Source: Cyclobacteriaceae bacterium
Lineage (GTDB): Bacteria > Bacteroidota > Bacteroidia > Cytophagales > Cyclobacteriaceae
Assembly: GCA_046317775.1 (NCBI GenBank)
Contig: JBKCVO010000066.1
Coordinates: 7,872-71,871 of the forward strand
Reading direction: 5' to 3'
Length of the DNA stretch: 64,000 bases
The notes beneath the pieces were generated by a model. The model did not search any database. It was given only the letters and a program-made list of their open reading frames with translations, and was not told the DNA's origin. The position numbers and the translations under genes are program-made. Shown here piece by piece: positions 1 to 14,367 of the stretch. Positions within the stretch are counted from its first letter, which is position 1. Every line of letters begins with the position of its first letter.

Positions 1-107
1 TAAAGGAAAATGCACGCAAGGGTGGCACAGTGATACTTCTGGATAACTGTGATGAATTTAAAAATGACTGTACCAAATATATAAGGTATGAAATGGTGAG
101 CCGTTAG
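1..107 (+). CDS. 3' end of a hypothetical protein (partial, runs off the window)
   Basis: Open frame 3..107 (KENARKGGTVILLDNCDEFKNDCTKYIRYEMVSR*), followed by the same post-stop module as the other island genes. Confidence 0.55.
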   Translation, partial: KENARKGGTVILLDNCDEFKNDCTKYIRYEMVSR

Positions 108-120
108 AAGTAACTCCCTA

Positions 121-357
121 TTTATTTCTTTGCAGATCCTCCTAGGAACTCTGCGTGACACGCTACTTTACGCCAACCACCAATCCTGCCCATCCTGCAA
201 AACCTGATTCAGACAATTACAACAACACTTTTTTTGGAGGTGTGGGAGGGAAGTACGAAATTTGAACAAAGAGCCAACATAGATGTAAGTGAAACATCCG
301 CAAGTTTTGTATGCCAAGTTTCGCAGCAAAGATGTGCATACACTAATGTTGGAGGTA
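121..357 (+). repeat. Composite intergenic element, copy 1 (modules A+B+C)
   Basis: A = tttatttctttgcaga..ctctgcgtgacacgctactttac (121-171); B = aatcctgcccatcct..cctgattcagaca (182-215); C = tttttttggaggtgtgggagggaagtacgaaatttgaacaaagag...gatgtgcatacactaatGTTGGAGGT (GTT at 348). Confidence 0.85.
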
Positions 358-394
358 AATCATTTGACAGACACCAAGACCAATAATTATACAA

Positions 395-1024
395 ATGAGA
401 AAATTGATTTTAATGACATATTTAATTACAACTACTATGTTTAACATTTTTGGACAAGGAAAAGATAAATCCGAAAAGGAATTTAATAAAATTAAGTCAA
501 GAATATTTCCTGTAGTAAAAGTCGAGACTAGTGGAGAAAGTGGAAAGACTATGGAGTTTACAGCTGAGAACCAACCCGTATTCAAGAAAATAGCTGGAGA
601 CCTGTTATGCTTTTATGGAATAGACAAAGGAGATAATTTCGTTCTTTTAACAAAGAGTCAAATTCCAAGTTCTATATCAATGGACGACCTTGATAACATT
701 GCAAAGGAAAATTTATTAGAAGAAGTTCAGAGGAATTTAAAAATACATAAAACGGACTTTGGCGGACTTGGATTTACGTGTGGCGGCAATCATGAAGCTG
801 CACTTATTCTGCTACCTGAAATTTGGGGTGTCCTAATTGAAAAATTAGGTGAAAACATAGTATTTGGTGTGCCTGCCAAAGACATGAGCGTTTTTGTGAA
901 CGCTGACCAAACAGACAGCGTAAGTAAATTGCAAGAAATGATTAACGATATTCACAAAGACGGTAGCCGGCTCCTCAGCAAAAAATTGTTTAAATATAAA
1001 GCCGGACAAATTGAAGTGAACTAA
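395..1024 (+). CDS. Hypothetical protein, DUF1444-like, with signal peptide
   Basis: 209-aa ORF; hydrophobic N-terminus ending FG-Q; FTCGGNHEAALILLPEIW and VFGVPAKD segments resemble DUF1444-type proteins. Confidence 0.6.
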   Translation: MRKLILMTYLITTTMFNIFGQGKDKSEKEFNKIKSRIFPVVKVETSGESGKTMEFTAENQPVFKKIAGDLLCFYGIDKGDNFVLLTKSQIPSSISMDDLDNIAKENLLEEVQRNLKIHKTDFGGLGFTCGGNHEAALILLPEIWGVLIEKLGENIVFGVPAKDMSVFVNADQTDSVSKLQEMINDIHKDGSRLLSKKLFKYKAGQIEVN

Positions 1025-1090
1025 ACATGAACTACTCGTCTGGCACGGAAGTTAGAGGCTGTGTAAAAATCAAAAATCTCCCCGCTGCCA

Positions 1091-1170
1091 TTTTTATGTA
1101 TTTCTTCGCAGAGCCTCCTCCCAGGAACTCTGCGTGACACGCTACTTTACACTAAAAACCAATCCTGCCC
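1091..1170 (+). repeat. Composite element, copy 2 (module A + start of B)
   Basis: tatttcttcgcagagcctcctcccaggaactctgcgtgacacgctactttacactaaaaaccaatcctgccc aligns with copy 1. Confidence 0.85.
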
Positions 1171-1176
1171 GCTAGC

Positions 1177-1983
1177 GTGATGGACAAGCGAATATCCAAA
1201 ATAAAGAATGACGTGCAAGACAGAAAATCTGTTGCTTGGAAAAAACTCTGCGATTATGTTGACAAGGTTGCTATAGAAAACTATGACGAATTTTCCCCGC
1301 TAGAGGAACTTGGAGAAGAGTTGTTTGCTCAAATTCATACTTTGCCCGAGACAATCTCAAAACTCACAAAAGTTAAAAAGGTTTGGCTTTACGGCAGTAA
1401 ACTGAAGCGGATTCCACCGGAAATTGGACAGATGGAAGCACTTGAATATTTTGACCCATACACTTCATACGACCTGCATTGGTTTCCTTACGAAATTACA
1501 AAGTGCAAAAACCTTAAAGACAGTAGAGTAAGCACAAGAATATTGTATGGCAATTGGAAAAATAGAATGGGATTCCCTCGTTTAACTCATAATCCCGTTC
1601 GGTATTCAGGCGATACTTTGAATTGCAGTGTTTGTGGCAAGACTATAACTTATGAGCAAACAAATCAACTTTGGATTTCATTGAGGGTTGGAACGGATGT
1701 ATTACCTCTTTTGACAAATCTATGTTCAAAGGAATGTGAAGGTAAATTACCGACACCACCCAAAGACTACATACAATTTGCGCATAAAGGCGGTGCCGAA
1801 TTAGTACAACCTCCTGACGAAGATGAACTGTATGAAGTAGAAATGAAGAAAGAAGAGCATGAACAAGTTGAGGATGTAACAGTAATTAGTCAACCGGACA
1901 TTAACGAAGCTCCTTTAGACAATCCTACTGTAAAGAAAGGATTTTCAATGTTAAAGTTAATTAGAAAAATATGGGAGCAATAG
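1177..1983 (+). CDS. Leucine-rich-repeat-like protein with Cys cluster
   Basis: LRR-like LPETISKLTKVKKVWLYGSKLKRIPPEIGQMEALEYF; CSVC...CSKEC; acidic C-terminal tail. Confidence 0.65.
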   Translation: MMDKRISKIKNDVQDRKSVAWKKLCDYVDKVAIENYDEFSPLEELGEELFAQIHTLPETISKLTKVKKVWLYGSKLKRIPPEIGQMEALEYFDPYTSYDLHWFPYEITKCKNLKDSRVSTRILYGNWKNRMGFPRLTHNPVRYSGDTLNCSVCGKTITYEQTNQLWISLRVGTDVLPLLTNLCSKECEGKLPTPPKDYIQFAHKGGAELVQPPDEDELYEVEMKKEEHEQVEDVTVISQPDINEAPLDNPTVKKGFSMLKLIRKIWEQ

Positions 1984-2101
1984 AGTAAGTAAAATTCTTT
2001 CAAAAAAAATCTCTCTCTTTTGTAACCTTTCTCAAAAACCTTTGTAATCGTAGCATCAAAATACAACATGAGGTAGCAACTCTATTAAAAACAGAAACTA
2101 G

Positions 2102-3304
2102 ATGAAAAAAATAGTAACAATAATTTTAACCGTATGGAGTTTGGGGACATTTGCTCAAACGACTTCAAAAATTGGTAATTCATCACCCAACTTGGTATTT
2201 GAAAAAATAATCAACTTCAATCAAAATAAGGCAACCTTAGCCGATTTTAAAGGCAAAGTTGTTGTATTAGATTTTTGGGCTACTTGGTGCAGCCCCTGTA
2301 TAAAATCCCTACCCGAATTAGAAGCATTGCAAACTAAGTATCAATCTGATTTGCAGGTTATAACAATCACAAGTGACCCTGCCGAAAGAATTGAAAAGTT
2401 TTTAAGTAAAAAAGCGCTGAAGTTACCGGTTGTAATTGATGAACAGGGAAAATTAGCCACAGTTTTTCCACATCGTACTATTCCTCATACTATTGTTATT
2501 GACAAATCCGGTATAGTGAGAGCAATAACAAGTTCATCACAGATAACTGAAGAAATAATTAACAAAGTTATCAATGGTCAAGAAGTCAACATTACAGAAA
2601 AGAAAGAAGTAATGGATTTTGATCCTTCCAAACCTTTATCAGGCAACGAAAATTTTACATACCAAATTACCATTACACCATTTCAAGAAGGATACCCTTC
2701 ATTTTCAAACATTCATACGGGCGAAGGCTTTTATAAAAACAGACGAATTTATGCTACAAACCTTGGTCCCAAATCCTTATTTGAAATAGCCTATCAATTT
2801 CCTGTCTCCATCAGAACCATCGTAGAAGTAAAAGATTTCAATAAACTGAAATGGAATAAAGACAATGCAGTTTGTTTTGAATTAACTGTTCCTGATAAAT
2901 TGTCGGAACAGAGATTTGAAATAATGAAACAGCATTTGGATCTATACTTTGATTATAAAGCAGTAACAGAAGAAAGGCTAAGAAAAGTTATGGTGCTTAG
3001 ACAACTAAAAGATAGTCCGAAAATCGTATTAACAAAAAGTTCGGATAAGACAGAAGCTTCCGCAAGTTATAGTGGAAAGGGCTTGTCTATGAAAAATTCG
3101 CTTGTAAGCAAATTGGCAGAATTTCTTGAAAGCCAACTTGATATACCAGTTGTAGATGATTCGAATCTAATTGAAAAATATGATGTAGAGATAGCTTGGT
3201 ATAATGAAAATCCTCAACAGATACATCAAGAACTCAAAAAAGTAGGGCTTGAATTAGTATCTGAAGATCGAATGATTAAAGTTTTAGTCATCAAAGACAA
3301 ATAA
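2102..3304 (+). CDS. TlpA/redoxin-domain protein with additional C-terminal domain (DUF3738-like)
   Basis: Signal peptide; VVVLDFWATWCSPC thioredoxin-like motif. Confidence 0.8.
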   Translation: MKKIVTIILTVWSLGTFAQTTSKIGNSSPNLVFEKIINFNQNKATLADFKGKVVVLDFWATWCSPCIKSLPELEALQTKYQSDLQVITITSDPAERIEKFLSKKALKLPVVIDEQGKLATVFPHRTIPHTIVIDKSGIVRAITSSSQITEEIINKVINGQEVNITEKKEVMDFDPSKPLSGNENFTYQITITPFQEGYPSFSNIHTGEGFYKNRRIYATNLGPKSLFEIAYQFPVSIRTIVEVKDFNKLKWNKDNAVCFELTVPDKLSEQRFEIMKQHLDLYFDYKAVTEERLRKVMVLRQLKDSPKIVLTKSSDKTEASASYSGKGLSMKNSLVSKLAEFLESQLDIPVVDDSNLIEKYDVEIAWYNENPQQIHQELKKVGLELVSEDRMIKVLVIKDK

Positions 3305-3317
3305 AACACAAGTGCTT

Positions 3318-3474
3318 CGATTATGTTTGGGAAGGGACGGGCTACGAGATCACATCCAAGGAATAGGTATATCCATCATGAAGAAATACATTTGTCATTA
3401 AGCAGAGCCGTATGGAGACTTTCACGTACGGTTCCGTGAGAACCTAAGGCTGAAACTCCCTGGGGTGACTCGAC
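3318..3474 (+). mobile_element. 5'-truncated group II intron remnant (domains V-VI, class D/IIB-like)
   Basis: GAGCCGTATG..CACGTACGGTTC (3405-3434) is a domain V-like helix with the AGC triad, about 4 nt shorter than usual; followed by a domain VI-like stem ending GTGACTCGAC. Left boundary approximate. Confidence 0.8.
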
Positions 3475-3497
3475 TGGCGCACATTTGACTAAACGAA

Positions 3498-4714
3498 ATG
3501 AATAAAATTCTAACACTATTACTAGTTTTTACATGGGGTGCCTCTTCATCTCAAACTAAATTCAATTCGACCATAGAGTTCACCGATGATTTGACAAAAT
3601 TTCAAAGTTTGTCAAATTTCAAAAACACATTACAAAATGTTGAAATTATGGCGCTTGGAGAAAATACTCATGGGCTTGGAGAAGTGTTTACCGCAAAAAT
3701 TGAATTGGTCAAATTTTTACATGAAAAGTTAGGCTTTGATTTGATTCTATTTGAATCAGGATATGGAGACGCAGCAATGGCTTGGGAAAAATTAGATGCT
3801 CTATCAGCCAAAGAATTTACAAGTATTTTTAGCTCAAACTTTTATTATAATTCAGAGGAAATTGAAAAACTGGTAGATTACGTAAAATCAAAGGAGGGTA
3901 AGTTAAAAATACAAGGTTTCGATTGCCAACCACAACAAAATTATCTAATAAAACGAATGACCGAAATAGCTCAGCGAATAGATTCCATATTAGCTAAATC
4001 AGTTGCAGTAGAAATGAAAAAATTTAACAACCTTTATCAATTTGAGAACGACAAAGACACAATTTCATTCAATAAACAACGAGATAATTTTATTAACTTT
4101 TTGCACAAGTACAACGATTTTGTAATTAAAACAATACTGAATTATTAAATTCAGGAGTGACAAAAAATGAAATAAGTGCTTTAAAAAAATCAAACGAGAT
4201 ATTCATAAAAACGTATTCTACAATTAAAATTGGAGAATTGATGAGTTGGCCTTTGTCGGCAAATAGTAGAGATAAGGCACTATTTGAAATCGTAAAATCG
4301 TTCAAAGACGAATACCCTGAATTAAAAATTATTATTTGGGCACAAAACAGCCATATTGAAAATAAGCCAAAGCCCAATTATACTGTAAATTGGATGGGGC
4401 ATTATCTTAAGAATACTTTTGACGATAAATATTATTCAATTGGGACGGTTGTTTATAGTGGAAAAAACTTAACCTACAATGGAACTTTCGATTTTGAGCA
4501 CAAAGACACCAATCATCTTGCATATCATCTTAACCGATTTGGAAAAGAAAAATTTGTGATAGACTTAAGAAAATACAACAAAAATGATTTTACCAAAGAA
4601 CTTCTTTTAGGAATGGAAAGCAATGGAAATATGGCAGAATTCGTTGCAAAAGACAGATTTGATGGCCTGCTTTTTGTTAAGTATAGTGGTGTTCCCAAGT
4701 TGATAAAAAAATAA
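3498..4714 (+). pseudogene. Erythromycin esterase family protein, frameshifted
   Basis: MALGENTHG..LFESG in 3498..4148 and IIIWAQNSHI..YYSIG in 4157..4714; adding one A in the AAAA at 4128-4131 joins them into a 405-aa ORF. Confidence 0.8.
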
Positions 4715-4727
4715 AACACATTATGCC

Positions 4728-4926
4728 TTTATTTCTTCGCAGTCTCCTACTAAGGACTCTGCGTGACACGCTACTTTACACTAACAACAAAACCTGCCCA
4801 TCCTAAAATCTTGCATATCCTGATTCAGACAGCGTGCAGTCTACACATTTCGCAATCCGCTCCGCCCATTAACTATTAACAACTTTTTTTGGAGGAGTGG
4901 AGCGGAAGAGCGAGATTTGAACAAAT
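4728..4926 (+). repeat. Composite element, copy 3 (A+B+left part of C)
   Basis: tttatttcttcgcag..ctctgcgtgacacgctactttacactaac; cctgcccatcctaaaatc..cctgattcagaca; tttttttggaggagtggagcggaagagcgagatttgaacaaa. Confidence 0.85.
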
Positions 4927-5016
4927 GCACGAAAATTAATCACGCGTACATTTTAATGGAACCATGTGCTTATACAACTGGTAATAATACCAGTGCAAAA
5001 ATTATTGTAAGATTTA

Positions 5017-5967
5017 ATGACAACACTTATCACGAAAAGACACCCTATTAAGTTTTATTTGGTTTTAGTTTTTGCGTTTCTATTTCTTTGCGGGTTAGGC
5101 ACGTTGTTAATGTTCGTTGGCATTGACCTTTTACAAAAGGAACAACATGCCACTAAAGACTATTTATCACCTGTTTTCAGTTTTCTGTTTTACTTTCTGG
5201 CAGTTTCAATGGTTTACATTTACTGGAAAATGTCACCAATAATTACCATCGACAAGCATACCATCGTTTTTGGAACACAAACATTTTATTTAAAGAACAT
5301 TAAAGATGTTAGACTTACAGGAAAGATGCCATTCCGTTATTACTTCATGACATTTCCAATGGAAGGAACTGCAATAACTTTCAATGACGGAACAGAAATA
5401 CTTTTATTTGATGATATGTATTCTAATAGTTGGGAAATAAAATCATTTCTAGAGCAGACAGTTATCAATAAACAAGAATACAAACCAAAGTTGATAGAAA
5501 GTGTGGTTAGAAATGTGCCATATCGAGATGAAGATGTGTTTAAAGGAAATCAATTCACAAGCCTAAGAGGAATTTCGCTTTGGGGAGTTATTGGTTTTTT
5601 TATTATTATGTTGTTTAGTAAAGGAAATCCGCCTATTGCGTTATTTGTATTTTTGGGAGTATTCAGTACTTTTTGGTTTATCCTGAGTTCATGGATGATG
5701 CACTACTTTGTAGTGACAAATGATTTCTTAATTATTAAAAATCATAATTTTTTATGGATGACTAAAATTTATCCACTCTCAGAAGTTAAGGAGATTGTTT
5801 ATGAAACACAAGAAAAGCAACCAAACTCGATGAGAGTGATAACAAAAGATTTTAAGAATAAATTGTATCGGGCAGGGACGTTGAGAGACAGTACTTGGTT
5901 GGACATGAAGAAAGAACTAGAAAGAAATAAAATAAAGGTTAGAAACGAGTGTATTTTTGAAGACTAG
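5017..5967 (+). CDS. Hypothetical membrane protein (two TM-pair plus soluble-domain modules)
   Basis: 316-aa ORF with two hydrophobic helix pairs, each followed by a beta-rich PH-like segment. Confidence 0.7.
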   Translation: MTTLITKRHPIKFYLVLVFAFLFLCGLGTLLMFVGIDLLQKEQHATKDYLSPVFSFLFYFLAVSMVYIYWKMSPIITIDKHTIVFGTQTFYLKNIKDVRLTGKMPFRYYFMTFPMEGTAITFNDGTEILLFDDMYSNSWEIKSFLEQTVINKQEYKPKLIESVVRNVPYRDEDVFKGNQFTSLRGISLWGVIGFFIIMLFSKGNPPIALFVFLGVFSTFWFILSSWMMHYFVVTNDFLIIKNHNFLWMTKIYPLSEVKEIVYETQEKQPNSMRVITKDFKNKLYRAGTLRDSTWLDMKKELERNKIKVRNECIFED

Positions 5968-6012
5968 CTGAGCTGTTCGCCTTACACGTAGAGGCTTGGC
6001 CGCAAAGCCATA

Positions 6013-6025
6013 TTTATTTCTTCGC
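6013..6025 (+). repeat. Left end of module A only
   Basis: tttatttcttcgc matches the start of module A, directly after gccata. Confidence 0.5.
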
Positions 6026-6113
6026 GGGGGTAGGCGGGATTGCTAGCTTCGATTGAAATACGCTGCTTCCGTTTAGTCTATCCAGAATCAGAAATTCATA
6101 AATTTGCGATCAC

Positions 6114-6554
6114 ATGAAGAACTGGGTAGTACTATTATTCCTGATTTCAGCTTTCACAGCGTCCGGGCAGGTTAACAAATCAGCATTGTTTGGTAGATGG
6201 ATTTGCACAAACAAGGACAGCGCCTATTACACGAGCAAGTATATTGTGTTTTACAGCGACACCACTTTTATTCGTAAAAGTAATCAGTGTGAATTTGTCA
6301 CTTGGGAAATCAACGCAGAAAAGCTTTATATTATGACGTGGACTGAGTGCCTTCCTGATGGAAAGGTTCATATGAGCTTTTATTTTTCAAAACCTCGGCT
6401 TCAGCTAAACTTAAAGAAGGTGCGGAGAAAGAAGATTATTGAATTGGTAAGAGGGAAGGAGGTAATTGAACAATTTAAAATAATAGAGTTCAGCGAACAG
6501 CGGGTGGACAAAGATTCACAGGTTATTAAAATCTTAAAGCTAAAGCGGATTTGA
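6114..6554 (+). CDS. Hypothetical secreted protein
   Basis: 146-aa ORF; signal peptide ending ASG-Q; TAAATTTG (-7-like box) at 6099-6106. Confidence 0.65.
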   Translation: MKNWVVLLFLISAFTASGQVNKSALFGRWICTNKDSAYYTSKYIVFYSDTTFIRKSNQCEFVTWEINAEKLYIMTWTECLPDGKVHMSFYFSKPRLQLNLKKVRRKKIIELVRGKEVIEQFKIIEFSEQRVDKDSQVIKILKLKRI

Positions 6555-6873
6555 AATTTTCGTTTTTCTTCCTCAAGCACTGACACAATCCGCAGAAACA
6601 CGCGTTTTGATTTACACACTCTGACTCCGTTAGGCGTAAAGACTCCTCCAAGGTGTCAGATGCTTTTTCTTCTTTTTATCCTTGTTTGCTTAGTTCTATA
6701 GCCGTCTCACACCTGCTTAGCGTTTCACAAACCGAGAATTCAGCGTATATGCACAGCCGCTGCGCAAGGGTGAAACAGAGATAATCTGCTTTGCTCAATA
6801 ATTTTTCTGACTGAACTGTATCTTTTCGGTGACTTTGCCATTTTAGTATGTAAAGAACGCAAACTGCTAAAAA

Positions 6874-8112
6874 ATGAAGAAACTCCTATTTGTTCTACTT
6901 ATTATTTTGGGGGCTTGCGAGAGCCAAAACCCATTCCCATATCTCCCTTACCAGCAGCAAAACACTTCAGAGGTAGCCTATGTCAAATTGGCGAAATCAA
7001 TCGCTACCAATTCCAAAGGGGTTATAGCCAATGGACTGAATTATGTGGAGCTAGAGGTTTTGGCTTTTAATAAGTTGGACATTGGTGTGCCGTTGTATGA
7101 TTCAAAGAATGATATAATCGAAGTGCAAACAAATGGAAAGAACTTTCAACTGAGGTACCCCTTTCGATTTAGTACCACAGAAAAGGGCAGCTATTCATTT
7201 CGGTTGAAACCCAACTCCATTCCTGTCCGCGATGTCAATATTGAAATAACTGCGATCGAGCCTGTTCTATTTCGCCCCACAGTACTTCCTGTGATTTTTC
7301 ACTATTTTAATCATACAGCAAAGCCCTTATCAAATTCTCAAAAAGATTCGGTGTCAAATTATCTGTCAAAGTTAGTGGGATGGTCCAACAAGGATTTCAG
7401 TAACTTGTCTGGATCAATAGATCCGAATGCAAGTGACACTGGCATTCAACTGCAAATGGCAAAGAACGATATTCAAGGTGCTGCATTAACATGGGCGGGC
7501 GTTAACTTTATTGAAACGGGCGGCACTTCATTTCAATCAACGAAAGATTTTGAGGATTATACCTGGCAAAATTGCTTTTGGCCTCCGAAGAAGTACATAA
7601 ATGTATGGGTTGCGTTAGCTCCCTACTTTGATCCGAAATTAAACGGCTTTAGCTGGGCGTACTTTCCCGACTTCATCCAAGGATCAAGTGCCTATCCACC
7701 GGGTCTTTATGGTGTGATGTTACATCAGAGAAGTGCCTTCTCGTCTTTATTATCTCACGAGATAGGTCATATGCTAAATTTGTTTCATGTATTTGGCGAC
7801 TGCACCAGAGATGCTGATGAATGTGCAGACACATGGAGTTATTATAGGACAGTTTATGACGATCAAAGTAAATTTTCGATCGAGAAAACGAGCTGCTCTT
7901 CAGAGAGGTTTATTTCAACTAACTTGATGGACTATGGACCATCCTGGAATAATACCTTCACGTTACAGCAGGCTCTTCTTATTCAACAAACCTTAAAAGA
8001 ATGTTCATTCTTGCCAACCAAACGAAATGGGTATATACATGGGCGAGCCTTTGAAGATGCCGAAAGACCAACGAAAGCAATGGTTTCAGACAAAACGAAA
8101 TTGGTGCTGTAA
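6874..8112 (+). CDS. M43-like zinc metallopeptidase lipoprotein
   Basis: Lipobox LGAC; HEIGHMLNLFH zinc motif; NLMDY Met-turn. Confidence 0.85.
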   Translation: MKKLLFVLLIILGACESQNPFPYLPYQQQNTSEVAYVKLAKSIATNSKGVIANGLNYVELEVLAFNKLDIGVPLYDSKNDIIEVQTNGKNFQLRYPFRFSTTEKGSYSFRLKPNSIPVRDVNIEITAIEPVLFRPTVLPVIFHYFNHTAKPLSNSQKDSVSNYLSKLVGWSNKDFSNLSGSIDPNASDTGIQLQMAKNDIQGAALTWAGVNFIETGGTSFQSTKDFEDYTWQNCFWPPKKYINVWVALAPYFDPKLNGFSWAYFPDFIQGSSAYPPGLYGVMLHQRSAFSSLLSHEIGHMLNLFHVFGDCTRDADECADTWSYYRTVYDDQSKFSIEKTSCSSERFISTNLMDYGPSWNNTFTLQQALLIQQTLKECSFLPTKRNGYIHGRAFEDAERPTKAMVSDKTKLVL

Positions 8113-8237
8113 TATTCGCGTTTACATAAAGCTGGAATATAAAAAGCTAGCAATCTGCAACCAGCACCCAATATCAGCCTCTGATCGCTGTCCAAGCTAT
8201 CCTTAGTCCGCGATTAAGCATCCCCAAATTTCTCCAA

Positions 8238-8443
8238 TGACACTTTACCTAACACATCCCTTTTCACTTTAACCATCATCCTGCCCATCCTAAAATCCTA
8301 AAATCCTGATTCAGACAATTACGACAACACTTTTTTGGGAGGAGTGGAAGAGAAGCACGAAATTTGAACAAAGAGTCAGCGGATGTAAGTGAAATATCCG
8401 CAAGTTTCACAGTAAAAGATGCGCGTATCCTATGTTGGCGGTT
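8238..8443 (+). repeat. Composite element, copy 4 (degenerate A tail + B + full C)
   Basis: tgacactttacctaaca; atcctgcccatcctaaaatcctaaaatcctgattcagaca; ttttttgggaggagtggaagagaagcacgaaatttgaacaaagag...gatgcgcgtatcctatGTTGGCGGT (GTT at 8434). Confidence 0.85.
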
Positions 8444-8538
8444 ATGGTAAAATAACACGCTAAAAATGCTAAAACACTTTAAACCTTTGGGAAAATAAAT
8501 TATCTAAGGGTTGTGTTAAACTAAATGTCAGAATAATT

Positions 8539-9609
8539 ATGAAGTCGTCTACAATTCTTTTATTGCTGTTACTATCAATTTCGAGTTGTAGTAAAAATGA
8601 TGATGTTGTTCAACCTACAACATCAGAATCTATGTATTTCCCTTCCAATACAAATACTACTTGGGAAACGAAACCGCTTTCAAGTTTAGGTTGGAATCAA
8701 AACGCAATCCAACCGCTGAAAGATTTTCTTACGCAAAAAAACACAAAATCATTTATGATTCTTGTAAATGGAAGAATTGTAATGGAAGAATATTTTAATG
8801 GTCATTCTTCAAACACTACTTGGGAATGGAACAGTGCAGGTAAAACCTTAGTTGCAACTACAACGGGAATCGCACAACAAGAAGGACTATTGAACATTAA
8901 CAACAAAGCATCTGATTATTTGGGAACGGAATGGACGAGTATGCCCTTGGCAAAAGAAAACTTAATTTCCGTAAAAGATTTACTAATAATGACAGTAGGC
9001 AATGATGATACAAAACAATATGTTGTTAAAGCCAACTTAACGTATGTTGCAGACGCAGGAACGCGGTGGGCGTACAGCAATATTTTTCAAAAATTAACCG
9101 ATGTTGTTGCCGGTGCAAGCAATAAACCTTTTGAAACATATTTTAATGAGAAATTAAAAAACAAAATTGGAATAGATGGATTTTGGGAGTTTGGAACAAT
9201 CTTTACCATATACCATAGCACCACCAGAAGTATGGCAAGGTTTGGTCTTATGGCATTGGCGAAAGGAAAATGGAATAACGAACAAATTATAAATGAGACT
9301 TTTTTTAATGAAAGCATTTCAACCTCTCAAAATATCAATCCTTCTTATGGATATTTATGGTGGTTAAATGGAAAAACTAGTTTTATGATTCCGGGTGAGC
9401 AAACAGTTTATCAGGGATACTTGATTCCAAATGCACCTGCTGATATGTATTCGGCAATGGGAGCGAATGACCAACGAATTTATGTAATACCAAGTAAAAA
9501 AATGGTAATTATAAGAATGGGAGATGCGTCTGACCCTGCAAACCCAAATTTTGCGGTTTCCGGTTTTGACAACGAACTTTGGGGCAAAATAAATGCTGTC
9601 ATAAATTAA
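8539..9609 (+). CDS. Serine hydrolase (class C beta-lactamase-like family) lipoprotein
   Basis: Lipobox ISSC; SAGK (SxxK); YSN motif; YGYLWWLN. Confidence 0.85.
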   Translation: MKSSTILLLLLLSISSCSKNDDVVQPTTSESMYFPSNTNTTWETKPLSSLGWNQNAIQPLKDFLTQKNTKSFMILVNGRIVMEEYFNGHSSNTTWEWNSAGKTLVATTTGIAQQEGLLNINNKASDYLGTEWTSMPLAKENLISVKDLLIMTVGNDDTKQYVVKANLTYVADAGTRWAYSNIFQKLTDVVAGASNKPFETYFNEKLKNKIGIDGFWEFGTIFTIYHSTTRSMARFGLMALAKGKWNNEQIINETFFNESISTSQNINPSYGYLWWLNGKTSFMIPGEQTVYQGYLIPNAPADMYSAMGANDQRIYVIPSKKMVIIRMGDASDPANPNFAVSGFDNELWGKINAVIN

Positions 9610-9827
9610 AGAAGCCTACTAAGCCTCTGCACTGTCAAAGAAGAACTTCGTCTCCGGGTCAGAATTTCTATGGAGTGCAGAAATAAAATACGTGTAAAAT
9701 CGATCTCGAATGTGACTCATACTTAAACTTTCATTTAAGGTAAATTATTTACCTACTGTTTTAAAAAAGAAATTTGTTTTCTAAAGTATCTGCTATACAT
9801 ACGACTTTGCGTTAGCGGCAGTATACT

Positions 9828-10310
9828 TTACAGTCGCCTTTTGGGTCTTGGCTTCGTACTGTCAACAATGGTTTTAATAGCCTTTTGAACCTGCTTATCC
9901 AAATCCTTTAATTTGTTGATGCTGTGGATCACATTCCTTTTCTTACCAAGAGTCAAACCGTCAAAAATCTCTTTGAGCGCTTTATCCTGTTCTAAAATGG
10001 TCTCAAGTACTTCAGGCATTTCTACACCCAATGGATTAGGATCTTCCTTTAGAGAAAAGTTAACTTTTTTACCTAAAGTTTTATCAAGCGCTTTTAGGTT
10101 TTTGGTCGAAAGAATAATAAAAAAATCACCTTCGCCTAAATGGTTTAACCCACACTGAAATGAAACGAGTTTATCAAGTGTGCAAATAAAACGAGTATGC
10201 CTCTTATTTTTAAATTTGTTCACAATGTCCGATTCAATTTTCAAATAAAAATAGCCACCCTTTCTCTTTTCGAGTTGCTTAATTATTTGTTCGCCTTTGT
10301 AAGTCTTCAT
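9828..10310 (-). CDS. DUF1905 / YdeI-OmpD-associated family protein
   Basis: GEGDFFIILS..DPNPLGVEMPEVL..LTLGKKRNVIHSINKLK pattern. Confidence 0.75.
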   Translation of the reverse strand: MKTYKGEQIIKQLEKRKGGYFYLKIESDIVNKFKNKRHTRFICTLDKLVSFQCGLNHLGEGDFFIILSTKNLKALDKTLGKKVNFSLKEDPNPLGVEMPEVLETILEQDKALKEIFDGLTLGKKRNVIHSINKLKDLDKQVQKAIKTIVDSTKPRPKRRL

Positions 10311-10553
10311 TTTAATTCAATGCACGTTTTTAATTTATGGAGATTATATAGATACAAAGAGTGAGTCCCATCATGCCCGATAGATCAGGCAACAGAAGAC
10401 TCCTTTTTTTAGCGTTCAAACCACAAATTTATGTTTCTTTTTTCTGACGAAATAGGGTTAAGTAAAAACGTCTTGCAACACAAAACTCCAAGTCCCAAGT
10501 CCTAAGCCCCAACTCCAAGTCCTAGTTCCCAATACGCGTTTTGTTAAGATTTT

Positions 10554-10680
10554 ATGACAAGACTTTTTTTGGAGGTGTGGGAGGGAAGAACGAGATTTGG
10601 TATAACAAAGAGCAATCGACTATAAGAGAAATAAGCGCAAGTTTTTTGGAAAACATGCGCATATGCTAATGTTGGTGGTC
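10554..10680 (+). repeat. Composite element, copy 5 (module C)
   Basis: tttttttggaggtgtgggagggaagaacgagatttgg...catgcgcatatgctaatGTTGGTGGT (GTT at 10671). Confidence 0.85.
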
Positions 10681-10731
10681 ATTGTAAGAAGACCTACAAA
10701 AATATAAAGCCGACCAAGAACAGAGAAGGAA

Positions 10732-11169
10732 ATGGAAATAAAAAAACTTAATTCAGACAGTTTAACAGACTTCAAATCTTTAATAGAAATTTTCAAAGAG
10801 GTTTTTGAAAATGATGAGCCTATTGCTAATGACGAGCATTTAGGAAAATTGCTATCTAACCCTGACTTTTTTGTGTTTGTTGTAATGACTAATAGTAAAG
10901 TGGTAGGCGGACTTACAATTTATGTACTGCATAGATACTATGGCACAAAACCGATTGCATATATTTATGACGTGGGAGTTAGCCACGACTACCAAGGACA
11001 AGGATTAGGCAAAGCACTCATAGCCACAGCGTGTAATTTCTGCAAAAAGAATGACTTTGAAGATGCTTATGTAGAAGCGGAAAGTGACGACATTTACGCA
11101 GTGAATTTTTATAGAAAGACCAAATTTAGCTCTGAACTAAAAGCAATACACTTTACTTATGACCTTTGA
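10732..11169 (+). CDS. GNAT N-acetyltransferase (AAC(3)-I-like subgroup)
   Basis: YIYDVGVSHDYQGQGLGKALI acetyl-CoA motif; YVEAESDD..AVNFY. Confidence 0.8.
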   Translation: MEIKKLNSDSLTDFKSLIEIFKEVFENDEPIANDEHLGKLLSNPDFFVFVVMTNSKVVGGLTIYVLHRYYGTKPIAYIYDVGVSHDYQGQGLGKALIATACNFCKKNDFEDAYVEAESDDIYAVNFYRKTKFSSELKAIHFTYDL

Positions 11170-11238
11170 GGCAAACAATGATAAAAAAACCGAAACCGTT
11201 ATCGGTCATTTTACCGATTAACGAATAAGCATTAACGC

Positions 11239-12582
11239 TTAACTGCCCGCCATCCTCACTCTCCAATTCGCGGGATACAAGTTGTTGAGGCGGTTGCCGA
11301 GCAGATTCACCCAGCCCAGTGGCGTCTTTTGATACGTCACCAACGCAAAACCTTTGCGGCCTTCACCGAGCAAAGGTGTCTCCTTACGCAAATAAGCGAG
11401 CGCTTCCTCCAGCGATACATCGAGTTGAATAAATTGATCCGTTTGCAATTCGATGGAAAGCGCAGCCGCATGTTCGGGAATAAACTTGTCGTGCTTCATC
11501 GTAGCAAGTGCCGTTCCTTTCGTGAGCACATTCAACTGCTGAGTCAGCCAATTGATTTCGGTAGCAAACTCCTCCGGCAACGCCACAATCAATTCATTCA
11601 ATTGAATCAACAGATGCGGATGTTGCAACCAATGGTTCAGTTGTTCCGCGGTCTTCTTCGCCAACAAAGGCAACACGTTCTTCGTGCGAAACACGGGTGG
11701 GGTAGTAGCCTCGCGCTTGCGCACCACCGCCATAAAAAATCCCTCGCCTTGTACAAGATGTGGATAACAATGATACCCCACCATGTTTCCCACCACCGAC
11801 TTGGTCACGCCCCACTTTGCATCCATCGTATGAGAAACAAATTCCACTTCTTTATTTTCGGCCAGCCACTTCAGGTTGCCTTCATTTTCAATGTCGTTGT
11901 ATGTACAGGTGGAGTAAATGAGTAAACCATTCTCTTTCAACGCAGGCCATACATCCGCCAAGATGCGCTGTTGCCGTTGCGAACAAAGCGTCACATTGTT
12001 CTCCGACCACTCCTGCATTGCATGTGGATCTTTGCGGAAAAGCCCTTCCCCTGAACAAGGAGCGTCTACCACCATCACATCAAAGTAGCCACTCAGTCGC
12101 TCAAAGTCTTTAGGGTCGTTGTTGCTCACCACCACATTCGCATGTCCCCACTTTTGTACATTCTCCGACAAGATGGAAGCGCGCGAGCGAATCACTTCAT
12201 TGCTCACCAGCAATGATTGTTCATTCATCAAACTCAACAGGTGGGTAGACTTCCCTCCGGGGGCCGCACATAAGTCCAGCACACGCAACGAACCGGTGGC
12301 ATCAGTAGCTTGTGTAAATGCTTGCTCAATCAACATCGAACTTGCCTCTTGCACATAATAAGCGCCCGCATGCAGCAGAGGATCTAAAGTAAAAACAGGG
12401 CGTTCCGGCAAATAATAGCCGTGAGTCGTCCAGGGTATTTTGGTAAATGCAGGTTGGTATCGCTTTCGCGGATTGGCACGAATACTAACAGGCGAAGGCT
12501 GCGCATGAGCCGCTTGCAGGGCAGGCCATTGATCCGGCAGCGCAGATTGCATTCTGTTGACAAAAGCTTCCGGAAAGTGCAT
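11239..12582 (-). CDS. RsmB/NOP/RsmF-family rRNA cytosine-C5 methyltransferase
   Basis: YYVQEASSM, VLDLCAAPGGKSTHL, DAPCSGEG, YSTCT motifs. Confidence 0.9.
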   Translation of the reverse strand: MHFPEAFVNRMQSALPDQWPALQAAHAQPSPVSIRANPRKRYQPAFTKIPWTTHGYYLPERPVFTLDPLLHAGAYYVQEASSMLIEQAFTQATDATGSLRVLDLCAAPGGKSTHLLSLMNEQSLLVSNEVIRSRASILSENVQKWGHANVVVSNNDPKDFERLSGYFDVMVVDAPCSGEGLFRKDPHAMQEWSENNVTLCSQRQQRILADVWPALKENGLLIYSTCTYNDIENEGNLKWLAENKEVEFVSHTMDAKWGVTKSVVGNMVGYHCYPHLVQGEGFFMAVVRKREATTPPVFRTKNVLPLLAKKTAEQLNHWLQHPHLLIQLNELIVALPEEFATEINWLTQQLNVLTKGTALATMKHDKFIPEHAAALSIELQTDQFIQLDVSLEEALAYLRKETPLLGEGRKGFALVTYQKTPLGWVNLLGNRLNNLYPANWRVRMAGS

Positions 12583-12658
12583 CGGTCAAAAATATCAGAT
12601 ACACACCTGTAAAGCAACATCTGTGAAGGTATTTGACTAATTTTGAATTTGTTATACT

Positions 12659-13936
12659 ATGGAAACAATTCACGCAAACAATCCCCGGTTGAAGTCGTGG
12701 GTAGAAGTACCCGCACATTCCGACTTCCCCATTCAAAATTTACCTTTCGGGATATTCAAAACACGGTATCTCACCTCCGTAGCGGGCGTGGCCATCGGAA
12801 AGCATGTGCTCGATCTTGTCTACTTGCACGAAAATGGTTTCTTCGATGGACTCGGTTTGCCCGCAGGCATATTTAACCAGCCGTTCTTAAACGACTTCAT
12901 GGCGTTAGGTCGCACGAAGACGAGAATGGTGCGTGAGCGCGTGTCCGAATTACTGCAACACGACAACGATGAATTGAAAGACAACGTAGCCGCACGCGAG
13001 TTGGCGCTCATTCCGATGGAAGAAGTACAAATGCAGATGCCGGTGCGCATACCTAACTACACCGACTTCTATAGCAGCGAAGAGCACGCCACCAATGTGG
13101 GCACACTCTTCCGCGATCCGAAGAATGCGTTGTTGCCTAACTGGAAACACTTGCCGGTAGGGTATCATGGTCGTGCTTCGAGCATTGTTGTTTCGGGCAC
13201 ACCCATCCATCGCCCGAAAGGGCAAATCAAACCACCCGATGCAGAGTTGCCGTTGTTTTGTCCTTCGAAGAAAATGGACTTTGAATTAGAGATGGCGTTC
13301 ATCACCTGCACTGATACCAAGTTGGGCACCAGCGTTTCCGCGAAAGCAGCAGAAGATCATATCTTCGGATTTGTCTTGTTCAACGATTGGAGTGCACGTG
13401 ATATTCAAAATTGGGAGTATGTTCCCTTGGGCCCATTTCTGGGGAAGAATTTCGGTTCCACCATCTCACCGTGGATTGTGACACTCGATGCGCTTGAACC
13501 GTTTCGTATGAAAGGTCCGGAGCAGTTCCCGCATGTATTGCCCTATTTAGCTACCGAAGGCGATCGCAACTTCGACATCACCTTAGAGGTGGCGATGCAG
13601 CCGGAGAAAGGAAGCGAGACAGTCGTGAGCCGCTCGAACTTTAAGTACATGTATTGGAATGTGTGTCAGCAGTTGGCGCACCATACGGTGAATGGCTGCA
13701 ATATTGAAGTTGGAGATTTGTATGCTTCAGGAACGATCAGCGGCCCTTCGCCCGGATCATTTGGTTCTTTGCTGGAACTGACGTGGAATGGCCAACGACC
13801 TTTGCATTTAAATGATGGTGCTGAGCGCAAATTTATAGAAGATGGCGACACCGTCATCATGCGCGGCCACTGCGAGAAAGAAGGTGTGCGCATAGGCTTT
13901 GGAGAATGTAAGGGTAAGATCATAGCTGCGGTTTAA
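12659..13936 (+). CDS. fahA: Fumarylacetoacetase
   Basis: SDFPIQNLPFG, YTDFYSSEEHATNVG, DFELEMAF, NDWSARDIQ, SGTISG motifs. Confidence 0.95.
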   Translation: METIHANNPRLKSWVEVPAHSDFPIQNLPFGIFKTRYLTSVAGVAIGKHVLDLVYLHENGFFDGLGLPAGIFNQPFLNDFMALGRTKTRMVRERVSELLQHDNDELKDNVAARELALIPMEEVQMQMPVRIPNYTDFYSSEEHATNVGTLFRDPKNALLPNWKHLPVGYHGRASSIVVSGTPIHRPKGQIKPPDAELPLFCPSKKMDFELEMAFITCTDTKLGTSVSAKAAEDHIFGFVLFNDWSARDIQNWEYVPLGPFLGKNFGSTISPWIVTLDALEPFRMKGPEQFPHVLPYLATEGDRNFDITLEVAMQPEKGSETVVSRSNFKYMYWNVCQQLAHHTVNGCNIEVGDLYASGTISGPSPGSFGSLLELTWNGQRPLHLNDGAERKFIEDGDTVIMRGHCEKEGVRIGFGECKGKIIAAV

Positions 13937-13949
13937 TATGCCTACGGAT

Positions 13950-14101
13950 GCCCCATCGGGGCTTCCTGTCTATAGGATTTAGTTTAAGAATATGCGTTGG
14001 ACTCCAGAGGAGTCTCCTTAAAACGATGTGCTAGTCAGGTGGCTCCTACGGAGCCAATTAAGTCAGATTGAGTTTCTATAAACAGGATGCTCCTTCGGAG
14101 C
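13950..14101. repeat. REPIN-like element (inverted REP pair with two internal hairpins); second copy at about 14204-14355
   Basis: gccccatcggggc-cctgtctatag ... ctataaacagg-gctccttcggagc; internal hairpins gactcc-aga-ggagtc and ggctcc-tac-ggagcc. Confidence 0.75.
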
Positions 14102-14113
14102 TTTGTTCAATAC

Positions 14114-14191
14114 ATGCTCGGCTACTGCGAGAAGGACGGAGTGCGTATTGGCTTTGGAGAATGTAAGGGGAAAATCATTGCTGCGGTTTAG
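14114..14191 (+). pseudogene. Orphan copy of the last 25 codons of fahA
   Basis: MLGYCEKDGVRIGFGECKGKIIAAV* versus MRGHCEKEGVRIGFGECKGKIIAAV*. Confidence 0.9.
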
Positions 14192-14367
14192 TACAATACG
14201 CTTGCCCCATCGGGGCTGCCTGTCTATAGAATTTAGTTTAAGAATATGCGTTGGACTCCGGAGGAGTCACCTGAAAACGATGTGTTAGTCAGGCTGCTCC
14301 TACGGAGCCAATGAAGCCGATTGATTTTCTATAAACAGGATGCTCCTTTGGAGCTTTAATCAATATA

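Follow-up and report, generated by a model that had tools for sequence, protein, structure and literature searches.

The first 11,220 nucleotides of a 64,000-nucleotide stretch of Cyclobacteriaceae DNA (contig JBKCVO010000066.1 of assembly GCA_046317775.1; hereafter the window) form an island that is probably a chromosomal integron-type cassette array, with its recombinase encoded elsewhere and with a promoter-bearing, attI-like element at its junctions. In this clade two types of junction share one recombination core, the first being an attC hairpin of about 132 nt and the second a composite repeat of about 190-250 nt that is conserved in sequence. The attC type folds best as the bottom strand and is absent from the window, and the repeat is present there four times. 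Cassettes are gained and lost site-specifically at the G|TT of the shared core.

Evidence for this boundary comes from a sister strain (contig L042), whose RsmF, the product of the core gene that bounds the array, is 99% identical and which matches the window at 97-99% identity. Its single difference is about 860 bp of extra DNA exactly at window positions 10660-10671 (CTAATG|TTGG). Where the window reads ..CATATGCTAATG|TTGGTGGTCATTG.., L042 reads ..CATATGCTAATG|TTAGGTGTAAG.. and continues into an open reading frame (ORF) of 242 amino acids. The insert begins TTAGGTG and ends CAGCTAAC-AGCACCTTGCCAAAAGCGGGGCT..loop..AGCCCCGCCTTTGGCAAGCTGCT-AAACG|TTGGCGGTCATTG.. (a boundary also written AAACG|TTGGCGGTCATT), and its terminal inverted repeat of 132 nt has a folding energy of -28.5 kcal/mol (z -3.3). 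The extra DNA is built as an integron cassette that has entered, or been lost from, a G|TT core, and this natural insertion event fixes the crossover at G|TT. An earlier note on this DNA, made from its letters alone, had supposed the cassettes to be frozen; because strains differ by the gain or loss of a cassette at 10671, they are not.

The arrays of relatives alternate in the order gene-attC-gene-repeat-gene-attC. In five such loci a cassette starts at the G|TT of the repeat, and over its first 13-15 bases it is reverse-complementary to the R'' box of its own attC (11/13, 13/14, 14/15, 11/13 and 11/13 bases matching), which is exactly what a circularisable cassette requires. Because the L042 insertion lies at G|TT and the cassette ends are complementary in these five relatives, the end of the repeat is a working cassette boundary. 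Two properties of a cluster of attC sites lacking an integrase (CALIN; Cury et al. 2016, PMC4889954; Neron et al. 2022, PMC9024848) are found here, besides the lack of a nearby integrase: the G|TT core acts as the boundary of insertion or excision, as seen in the 10671 polymorphism, the R' matches and the complementary ends, and gene content varies among close relatives. A comparison of gene order, which the earlier note had proposed, shows that the cargo at the RsmF locus differs between relatives. For example, a relative with RsmF 92% and fumarylacetoacetase 94% identical carries a convergent array at the same locus with none of the genes of the window, and relatives at 67% RsmF identity hold yet other small genes there. 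Cassettes are also shared across genomes. The beta-lactamase-fold gene and the repeat upstream of it are 91% identical to a locus of different context in Flammeovirgaceae UBA5008 (L025), where the homology stops 12 nt past the stop codon and the repeat is kept 5' of the gene; other genomes share further cassettes, which appear in shuffled combinations.

The island is AT-rich, with a GC content of 0.33-0.40 over positions 1-11000 as against 0.41-0.50 in the remaining 53 kb. Nine genes lie on the forward strand and one (9828-10310) on the reverse strand. Their Pfam functions are unrelated (AhpC/TSA with DUF3738, esterase, M43 peptidase, beta-lactamase fold, YdeI/OmdA and GNAT), and four genes have no Pfam match. 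The earlier note had counted eleven AT-rich genes of unrelated function, ten of them co-oriented; the composition and the functions hold, whereas its eleven ORFs amount to ten genes, nine of them co-oriented. No match to Phage_integrase occurs among the genes called over 8 kb on the left and 53 kb on the right (about 72 of the 74.8 kb of the contig), and gene tables place no recombinase within 10 kb of the RsmF-side end of the array. In particular, the left flank, where the note had suggested looking for a tyrosine recombinase, has none in 8 kb. Of its overall reading, an integron-like array with no adjacent integrase, the array and the missing recombinase stand, whereas the description of the junctions as attC remnants between frozen cassettes does not.

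The motif GTTGGNGG, which the earlier note had singled out at 348, 8434 and 10671, is indeed non-random (three observed, 0.02 in shuffles); the three sites lie 47-105 nt 5' of start codons, and a junction-repeat copy has its 3' end at each of them. On a matrix derived solely from R' boxes that belong to attC sites of other genomes, the sites at 8434, 11198 and 10671 score 14.8, 14.4 and 11.2 bits, and a single match of at least 14 bits occurs in the remaining 105 kb of window strand. The second of these (GTTATCGGTCATT) is the GTT site with which the note had ended the array, and its score bears that assignment out. There, an R''-like box directly abuts the R' box without internal arms; the segment, which lies between the convergent genes, also folds into a small hairpin, and the attC model R2 described below scores it at 7.9 bits. 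The core has the form (A/C)(A/T)(T/C)G|TTGGNGGTNAT, and the bases that follow share the consensus GTT-RKBRBB-WAWT whether an attC or a repeat precedes them. Other motifs proposed in the note fared less well. The textbook core GTTRRRY is found 15-110 nt upstream of one of ten starts (shuffle mean 0.75), and RYYYAAC occurs within 30 nt after none of ten stops. The TGGCGC at 3475 directly follows a group II intron fragment (3403-3474), at its 3' edge, and is not a core site. The putative inverse-core stubs ctcccta (114) and tatgcc (4722) each mark the beginning of a module that recurs behind four stop codons, and cctacta (4746) lies about 25 nt inside the repeat copy at 4722. A search for R'' box remnants that would pair with the 5' ends of the cassettes in the window gave nothing convincing.

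True attC hairpins of about 132 nt (132-139 nt) are carried by related arrays of Cytophagales and Flavobacterium. A naive scan for AAC..GTT pairs by folding energy was too noisy in GC-rich control DNA, and a single-hairpin scan and covariance models were used. The first model, seeded from three sites of equal length, recovered 14 sites. Nine independent sites outside the seed have 89.4% of cells paired (66% in shuffles; 35-51% in slid controls), with compensatory changes in 19 of 26 pairs and a covariation score of 0.57 against 0.20 that was reached by 0 of 500 shuffles. Moreover, G.U pairs conserved on the modelled bottom strand become A.C mismatches on the top strand. A rebuilt model (R2) finds 20 sites of 30-103 bits, held-out seeds included, in 14 loci (13 related Cytophagales loci and L042), 20 more in an array of Flavobacterium proteolyticum and 7 in another genome. 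In the island, to which the earlier note had proposed applying custom covariance models, this clade model detects no attC: with filters off, its best match across positions 1-14000 scores 12.5 bits (E 0.59) and lies inside a gene. Intergenic hairpin energies in the island are likewise no better than in shuffles. Class 1 attC controls are detected by the hairpin scan, but not by R2.

The Flavobacterium proteolyticum locus (L046; GCA_015223105.1, JADFTZ010000005.1, 191848-207609) is apparently a large cassette array, so far undescribed, of a cultured Flavobacterium. It holds at least 21 co-oriented small genes, extends to the end of the contig and has an attC of 132-139 nt after almost every gene; two SUKH/SMI1_KNR4 proteins are among its cargo.

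The composite repeat, which the earlier note had missed, is confined within the window to the island, where two copies are full, one is left-only, two are right-hand parts and one is a stub (Table 1). Five modules can be recognized. The left module contains CTCTGCGTGACACGC, a short hairpin (CGCAGAG..CTCTGCG) and the R''-like TTTACNCNAAC; the second consists of AATCCT-type short repeats that end in CCTGATTCAGACA; the third, a small hairpin, is present only sometimes; the fourth is CTTTTTTTGGAGGNGTGGGAGGGAAGNNCGARATTTG; and the distal module has two or three TGCGCA-centred repeats and terminates CTAATG|TT. In relatives, pattern scans reveal many copies per genome in four metagenome-assembled genomes and three metagenome assemblies, and every copy stands directly in front of an ORF of the same orientation. 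Relatives with this repeat are labelled Cyclobacteriaceae or Flammeovirgaceae (Cytophagales). An exact 23-mer of the left module has no match in species-representative genomes.

This repeat is conserved in sequence and not in structure, the reverse of the behaviour of attC, because it folds no better than shuffles (z -0.3 as DNA, -0.55 as RNA) and because consistent pairing among 26 aligned copies from several genomes is limited to an 8-bp palindrome without compensatory changes. The folding values rule out the whole 250-nt repeat as a single long attC or a structured RNA. The distal module was also considered as an attC-like hairpin and rejected, since RNAalifold and an exhaustive helix scan of the 26 copies found nothing pairable except the TATGCGCA/TGCGCATA palindrome; R'' and R' do not pair, and compensatory changes are absent. 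The earlier note had explained the junctions by removal of the left arms of attC sites; that reading is unsupported because the junction elements are full-length copies of a conserved, structure-poor family.

Module 4 has a layout, TTTG, 20-21 nt, (T/G)AnnTTTG, that is matched in all four window copies, about 85-110 nt 5' of the core. The Bacteroidota sigma-A -7 consensus is TAnnTTTG (PMC9723704), and we infer that the repeat carries a promoter of this type (TTTG-N20-GAnnTTTG). The extra cassette of L042 has no such motif of its own, and four window junctions have one just 5' of the cassette boundary.

Two further observations concern the modules. Tandem repeats of 7-8 nt (CCAAGTC/CCCAAGT) occupy positions 10475-10540, just 5' of a repeat copy, in place of the AATCCT-type repeats, and similar ones stand 5' of some copies at L013 9394-9470 and 10391-10527. 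In three genomes (L024 4125-4720, L030 1542-2160 and L019 1540-2051), a 124-aa gene that looks by eye like a GxxExxY type is flanked by inverted AATCCT..CCTGATTCAGACA modules (TGTCTGAATCAGGATT...gene...AATCCTGATTCAGACA) at about 90% identity. This may be a small mobile unit and a candidate source of the AATCCT module.

If the island is a cassette array of the kind proposed, the repeat would act as a combined Pc promoter and attI-like recipient site, a role suggested by the promoter-like motif upstream of its core. A trans-acting tyrosine recombinase would insert promoterless attC cassettes at the G|TT of the repeat, where transcription would follow; the recombination partners would be an L042-type attC and the repeat end (CTAATGTT / CTAATGTTGGTGG). 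Either the recombinase or a regulator may bind the TGCGCA repeats that separate promoter and core. Half of the junctions in the window (1025-1176, 1984-2101, 5968-6113, 6555-6873 and 9610-9827) keep no usable site, so that the array appears partly eroded, although not frozen. Decay would account for these junctions and also for the left-only copy at 1091-1172, the degenerate repeat end near 4975 (..CAACTGGTAATAAT, which lacks a clean GTT core) and, at 11184-11210, the R''/R' pair that has no arms. A broader and more tentative proposal is that the repeat is a portable promoter and attI-like site that seeds and punctuates integrase-less arrays at many chromosomal loci in a clade of Cytophagales. 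It is possible, though less likely than not. Were it true, these arrays would form a distributed integron served by a recombinase in trans and by dozens of dispersed promoters, with deep cassettes expressed rather than silent.

Several points weigh against an integron-type array. No recombinase was identified anywhere searched, and either IntI or an XerD-like enzyme of the rAID type is possible. No attC is detectable in the window itself, although a very different attC type could have escaped R2 because that model is specific to Bacteroidota and blind to the class 1 controls. The -7 box of the window copies starts with G (GAnnTTTG) where the consensus has T, and promoter activity is read from this motif. 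The sharing of the beta-lactamase-fold cassette fits equally with a repeat that travels with its downstream gene and with a repeat that is the recipient site. Finally, homologous recombination between copies may add to the shuffling because the modules that make up the mosaic repeat are also found on their own.

The alternative that best survives is a relationship to rAID-1, the interbacterial defence arrays of Bacteroidales, whose biogenesis has been described as integron-like although its mechanism is not known (Ross et al. 2019, bioRxiv 10.1101/471110; PMC12247911). The island would then be such an array detached from its XerD-like recombinase, which is not an IntI, and its cargo would be expected to be mostly defence or immunity genes. 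Compared by description, the two share a phylum, short co-oriented genes, low GC content and conserved intergenic motifs, and the island has more than the two co-directional genes with GC of at most 41% by which rAID-1 is in part recognized. The cargo of related arrays also points this way, as it includes the SUKH/SMI1_KNR4 proteins of L046, SIR2 with HerA, an AAA_15/AAA_21 ATPase and an RHS-repeat fragment; one ORF (L006 6044-7462) looks by eye, from sequence only, like a KAP NTPase. The genes for SIR2 with HerA, the ATPase and the RHS fragment, together with one for a reverse transcriptase (L021 1923-4731, L032 4069-5913 and 6436-7950, and L018 4474-5394), are all of a defence or conflict type and lie behind the promoter-bearing repeat. 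Moreover, IntegronFinder surveys of genomes find almost no integrons in Bacteroidetes, and reports in Bacteroidota are only sporadic.

Nevertheless, we consider this relationship rather unlikely. The XerD-like recombinase that defines rAID-1 on the 5' side (at least 44% identity to BF9343_RS08045) is missing from the island, and no adjacent recombinase was found in about 20 related loci, searched by Pfam on about 40 ORFs and in the Pfam tables of 8 further contexts reached through homologues of the 242-aa cassette protein of L042. The cargo of the window consists of enzymes and unknowns, with no match to an immunity family (SUKH, SMI1_KNR4 or Imm) in Pfam and hence no recognizable orphan immunity genes, and the host is an environmental member of the Cytophagales. 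In relatives, the sites terminate in AAC/GTT, fold into a hairpin of about 130 nt with a preference for the bottom strand and bound cassettes whose ends are complementary, and they show in this all the hallmarks of integron attC sites.

A second alternative is an ordinary hypervariable island containing a dispersed, promoter-carrying mosaic repeat that resembles miniature inverted-repeat transposable elements or bacterial interspersed mosaic elements, with homologous recombination as the cause of shuffling and the GTT ends incidental. The conservation of the repeat in sequence rather than structure would suit this, as would the separate occurrence of its modules in varied combinations, even inverted around the GxxExxY-like gene. 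Breakpoints between genomes often fall at module borders, and copies that are 75-95% alike are sufficiently similar for homologous exchange. However, the L042 insertion has G|TT as its exact limit at either end and contains an attC hairpin, the 5' ends of five cassettes complement the R'' box of their own attC, and the bases after GTT share a consensus with those after true attC sites. Homologous recombination predicts no such complementarity, and we regard this explanation as very improbable. Least probable of all, and scarcely credible, is the model of the earlier note, a CALIN whose attC sites have lost their left (R''-L'') arms, leaving GTT cores, stubs and immobile cassettes: the left-module hairpin with the R''-like TTTACGCCAAC after four stop codons could be attC relics, the array end keeps only an R''/R' pair and five junctions lack any site, but the attC model stays at chance level throughout the island, the elements 5' of the cores are full-length members of a family present in seven assemblies and not deletion products, RYYYAAC is not enriched after stops, and the 10671 polymorphism contradicts it.

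The island works like an integron array, although it has neither the attC sites that identify a CALIN nor the adjacent recombinase gene that identifies a rAID array. Similar to sedentary chromosomal integrons and CALIN, it has co-oriented, functionally unrelated and compositionally foreign genes with no integrase nearby, G|TT cassette boundaries and a content that varies between strains and relatives, and in its relatives the junctions are attC hairpins that end in AAC/GTT and fold preferentially as the bottom strand, between cassettes whose ends are complementary. Unlike a CALIN, for which the usual definition asks for at least two attC sites, the window has none that can be detected, and four of its junctions are long, conserved in sequence, unstructured and equipped with a promoter-like motif of their own. 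For this last reason its cassettes may not be promoterless. A further difference is that the attC family of 132-139 nt is specific to Bacteroidota, where surveys of genomes have met almost no integrons. Attachment sites derived from attI are known to replace attC at cassette ends inside arrays and to be functional substrates (PMC12901181). The repeat resembles these delta-attI cassettes in that a promoter-like motif is followed by a non-hairpin site that ends in GTT and takes attC cassettes, but it has no neighbouring integrase gene and occurs in many copies per array and genome. This likeness is one of layout, and no integrase-proximal attI of the clade was found. As in bacterial interspersed mosaic elements, the repeat is a modular, multi-copy intergenic sequence that might supply a promoter to the gene downstream, whereas its confinement to accessory arrays, its constant co-orientation with genes and its termination in a site-specific insertion site are different. 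We found no earlier description, in the open-access literature, of a promoter-bearing junction element that ends in an R' core.

These findings matter for a phylum in which integrons are reported to be nearly absent and where rAID, whose mechanism is not known, is the only array system described. The attC model provides a testable family of recombination sites for this phylum, with 47 sites in arrays of Cytophagales and Flavobacterium. Integron cassettes far from Pc are usually silent, and a second, promoter-bearing kind of junction would alter our understanding of how the genes of an array are expressed.

Table 1. Genes, repeat copies and other elements of the island and its right-hand boundary (positions in the window)
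Feature	Position	Strand	Basis or remarks
First array gene, 3' end (187 aa)	1-106	+	Gene table; start at L001 7471, left of the window
Repeat copy 1 (full), left module	107-177	+	Starts a few nt past stop codon; invariant CTCTGCGTGACACGC; R''-like TTTACGCCAAC at 167-177
Copy 1, AATCCT-type module and spacer	178-227	+	Ends in CCTGATTCAGACA at 203-215
Copy 1, promoter-like module CTTTTTTTGGAGGTGTGGGAGGGAAG..GAAATTTG	228-264	+	-33 TTTG 233-236; -7 box 257-264
Copy 1, distal module, TGCGCA-type repeats	265-360	+	Ends CTAATG|TTGGAGGTAAAT; core at 348; full copy 1 spans 107-356
Cassette gene, 209 aa	395-1024	+	No Pfam match
Left module only (truncated copy without promoter or core)	1091-1172	+	nhmmer 82 bits
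Cassette gene, 268 aa	1177-1983	+	No Pfam match
AhpC/TSA thioredoxin-like + DUF3738 gene	2102-3304	+	Pfam
Group II intron domain V/VI fragment, 72 nt	3403-3474	+	Rfam RF00029, 39.3 bits, E 6.2e-5
Erythromycin-esterase-family gene	3498-4714	+	Pfam; two ORFs, 3498-4148 and 4157-4714
Repeat copy 2 (full)	4722-4990	+	Left module 4722-4788; AATCCT to 4831; promoter-like 4883-4919
Cassette gene, 316 aa	5017-5967	+	Membrane protein by eye only; no significant Pfam match
Left-module stub TATTTATTTCTTCGCGG after stop codon	6005-6030	+	Repeat comparison
Cassette gene, 146 aa	6114-6554	+	No Pfam match
Peptidase M43 gene	6874-8112	+	Pfam
Repeat copy 3 (right part)	8240-8446	+	R''-like TTTACCTAAC at 8244; AATCCT module; promoter-like 8334-8366; ends CCTATG|TTGGCGGTTATG, core at 8434
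Beta-lactamase-fold gene	8539-9609	+	Pfam; shared cassette spans 8271 to ~9621
DUF1905/OmdA (YdeI-like) gene	9828-10310	-	Pfam; sole reversed gene
Repeat copy 4 (right part)	10541-10683	+	Promoter-like 10568-10599; ends GCTAATG|TTGGTGGTCATT, core at 10671
GNAT acetyltransferase gene	10732-11169	+	Pfam; last cassette
Array end AAAAAACCGAAAC-C-GTTATCGGTCATT	11184-11210	+	R''-like box abutting R' box, no internal arms
RsmF 16S rRNA methyltransferase gene	11239-12582	-	Conserved core gene bounding the array, convergent

The junction between the AhpC-like and esterase genes (3305-3497) is filled by the group II intron fragment, which has the same orientation as the cassettes. Its match lies just below the gathering score of 40 and is the only Rfam match at E <= 1. 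The 3305-3497 junction holds no reverse-transcriptase ORF, and an intron with domains I-VI and a reverse transcriptase is therefore not present; the element is a 3' fragment of one. Group IIC introns target attC sites. An intron fragment at an island junction is thus a further likeness to integrons, with which group IIC introns have been linked in general (PMC7923331). In 13 related loci Rfam gives nothing at gathering score, and the reverse transcriptase gene of L032 is accordingly unsupported as a group II intron.

A deletion of 1 nt within an A-run at 4127 breaks the esterase gene into two ORFs and could be a real pseudogene mutation or a homopolymer assembly error; the gene is intact, at 405 aa, in a co-occurring strain (L003). 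To the left of the window there is one further array gene, preceded by genes for PorP/SprF, a CHU_C protein and GSDH. The 5' boundary of the first array gene, GTTGTAGGCAATT (L001 7444), scores 11.3 bits on the R'-box matrix. At L001 7385-7455, 70-140 nt 5' of that gene, the hairpin GCGCTAGCGAGGGGTT..GAACCCCGCTAGCGAGG (-13.4 kcal/mol, z -2.2) is flanked by AAACTAAC and GTTGTAGGCAATT, marks the beginning of the array and resembles a short attC-like or attI-like site. The attC covariance model does not recognize it, and the GCTAGC motifs of the region recur at window positions 1165 and 6041.

A capsule or O-antigen locus was also considered for the island and ruled out, as it has no glycosyltransferase, flippase or polymerase domains. 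Beyond RsmF lies the core gene for fumarylacetoacetase, and genes for menaquinone, arginine, alternative complex III and cytochrome oxidase are found to the right of the array. A tandem duplication of about 254 bp at 13858-14365, with copies 86-91% identical, comprises the last 79 nt of the fumarylacetoacetase gene and 175 nt downstream, within an unusually long intergenic region of 817 nt. The L042 counterpart of this region folds strongly, at -37 kcal/mol over 210 nt.

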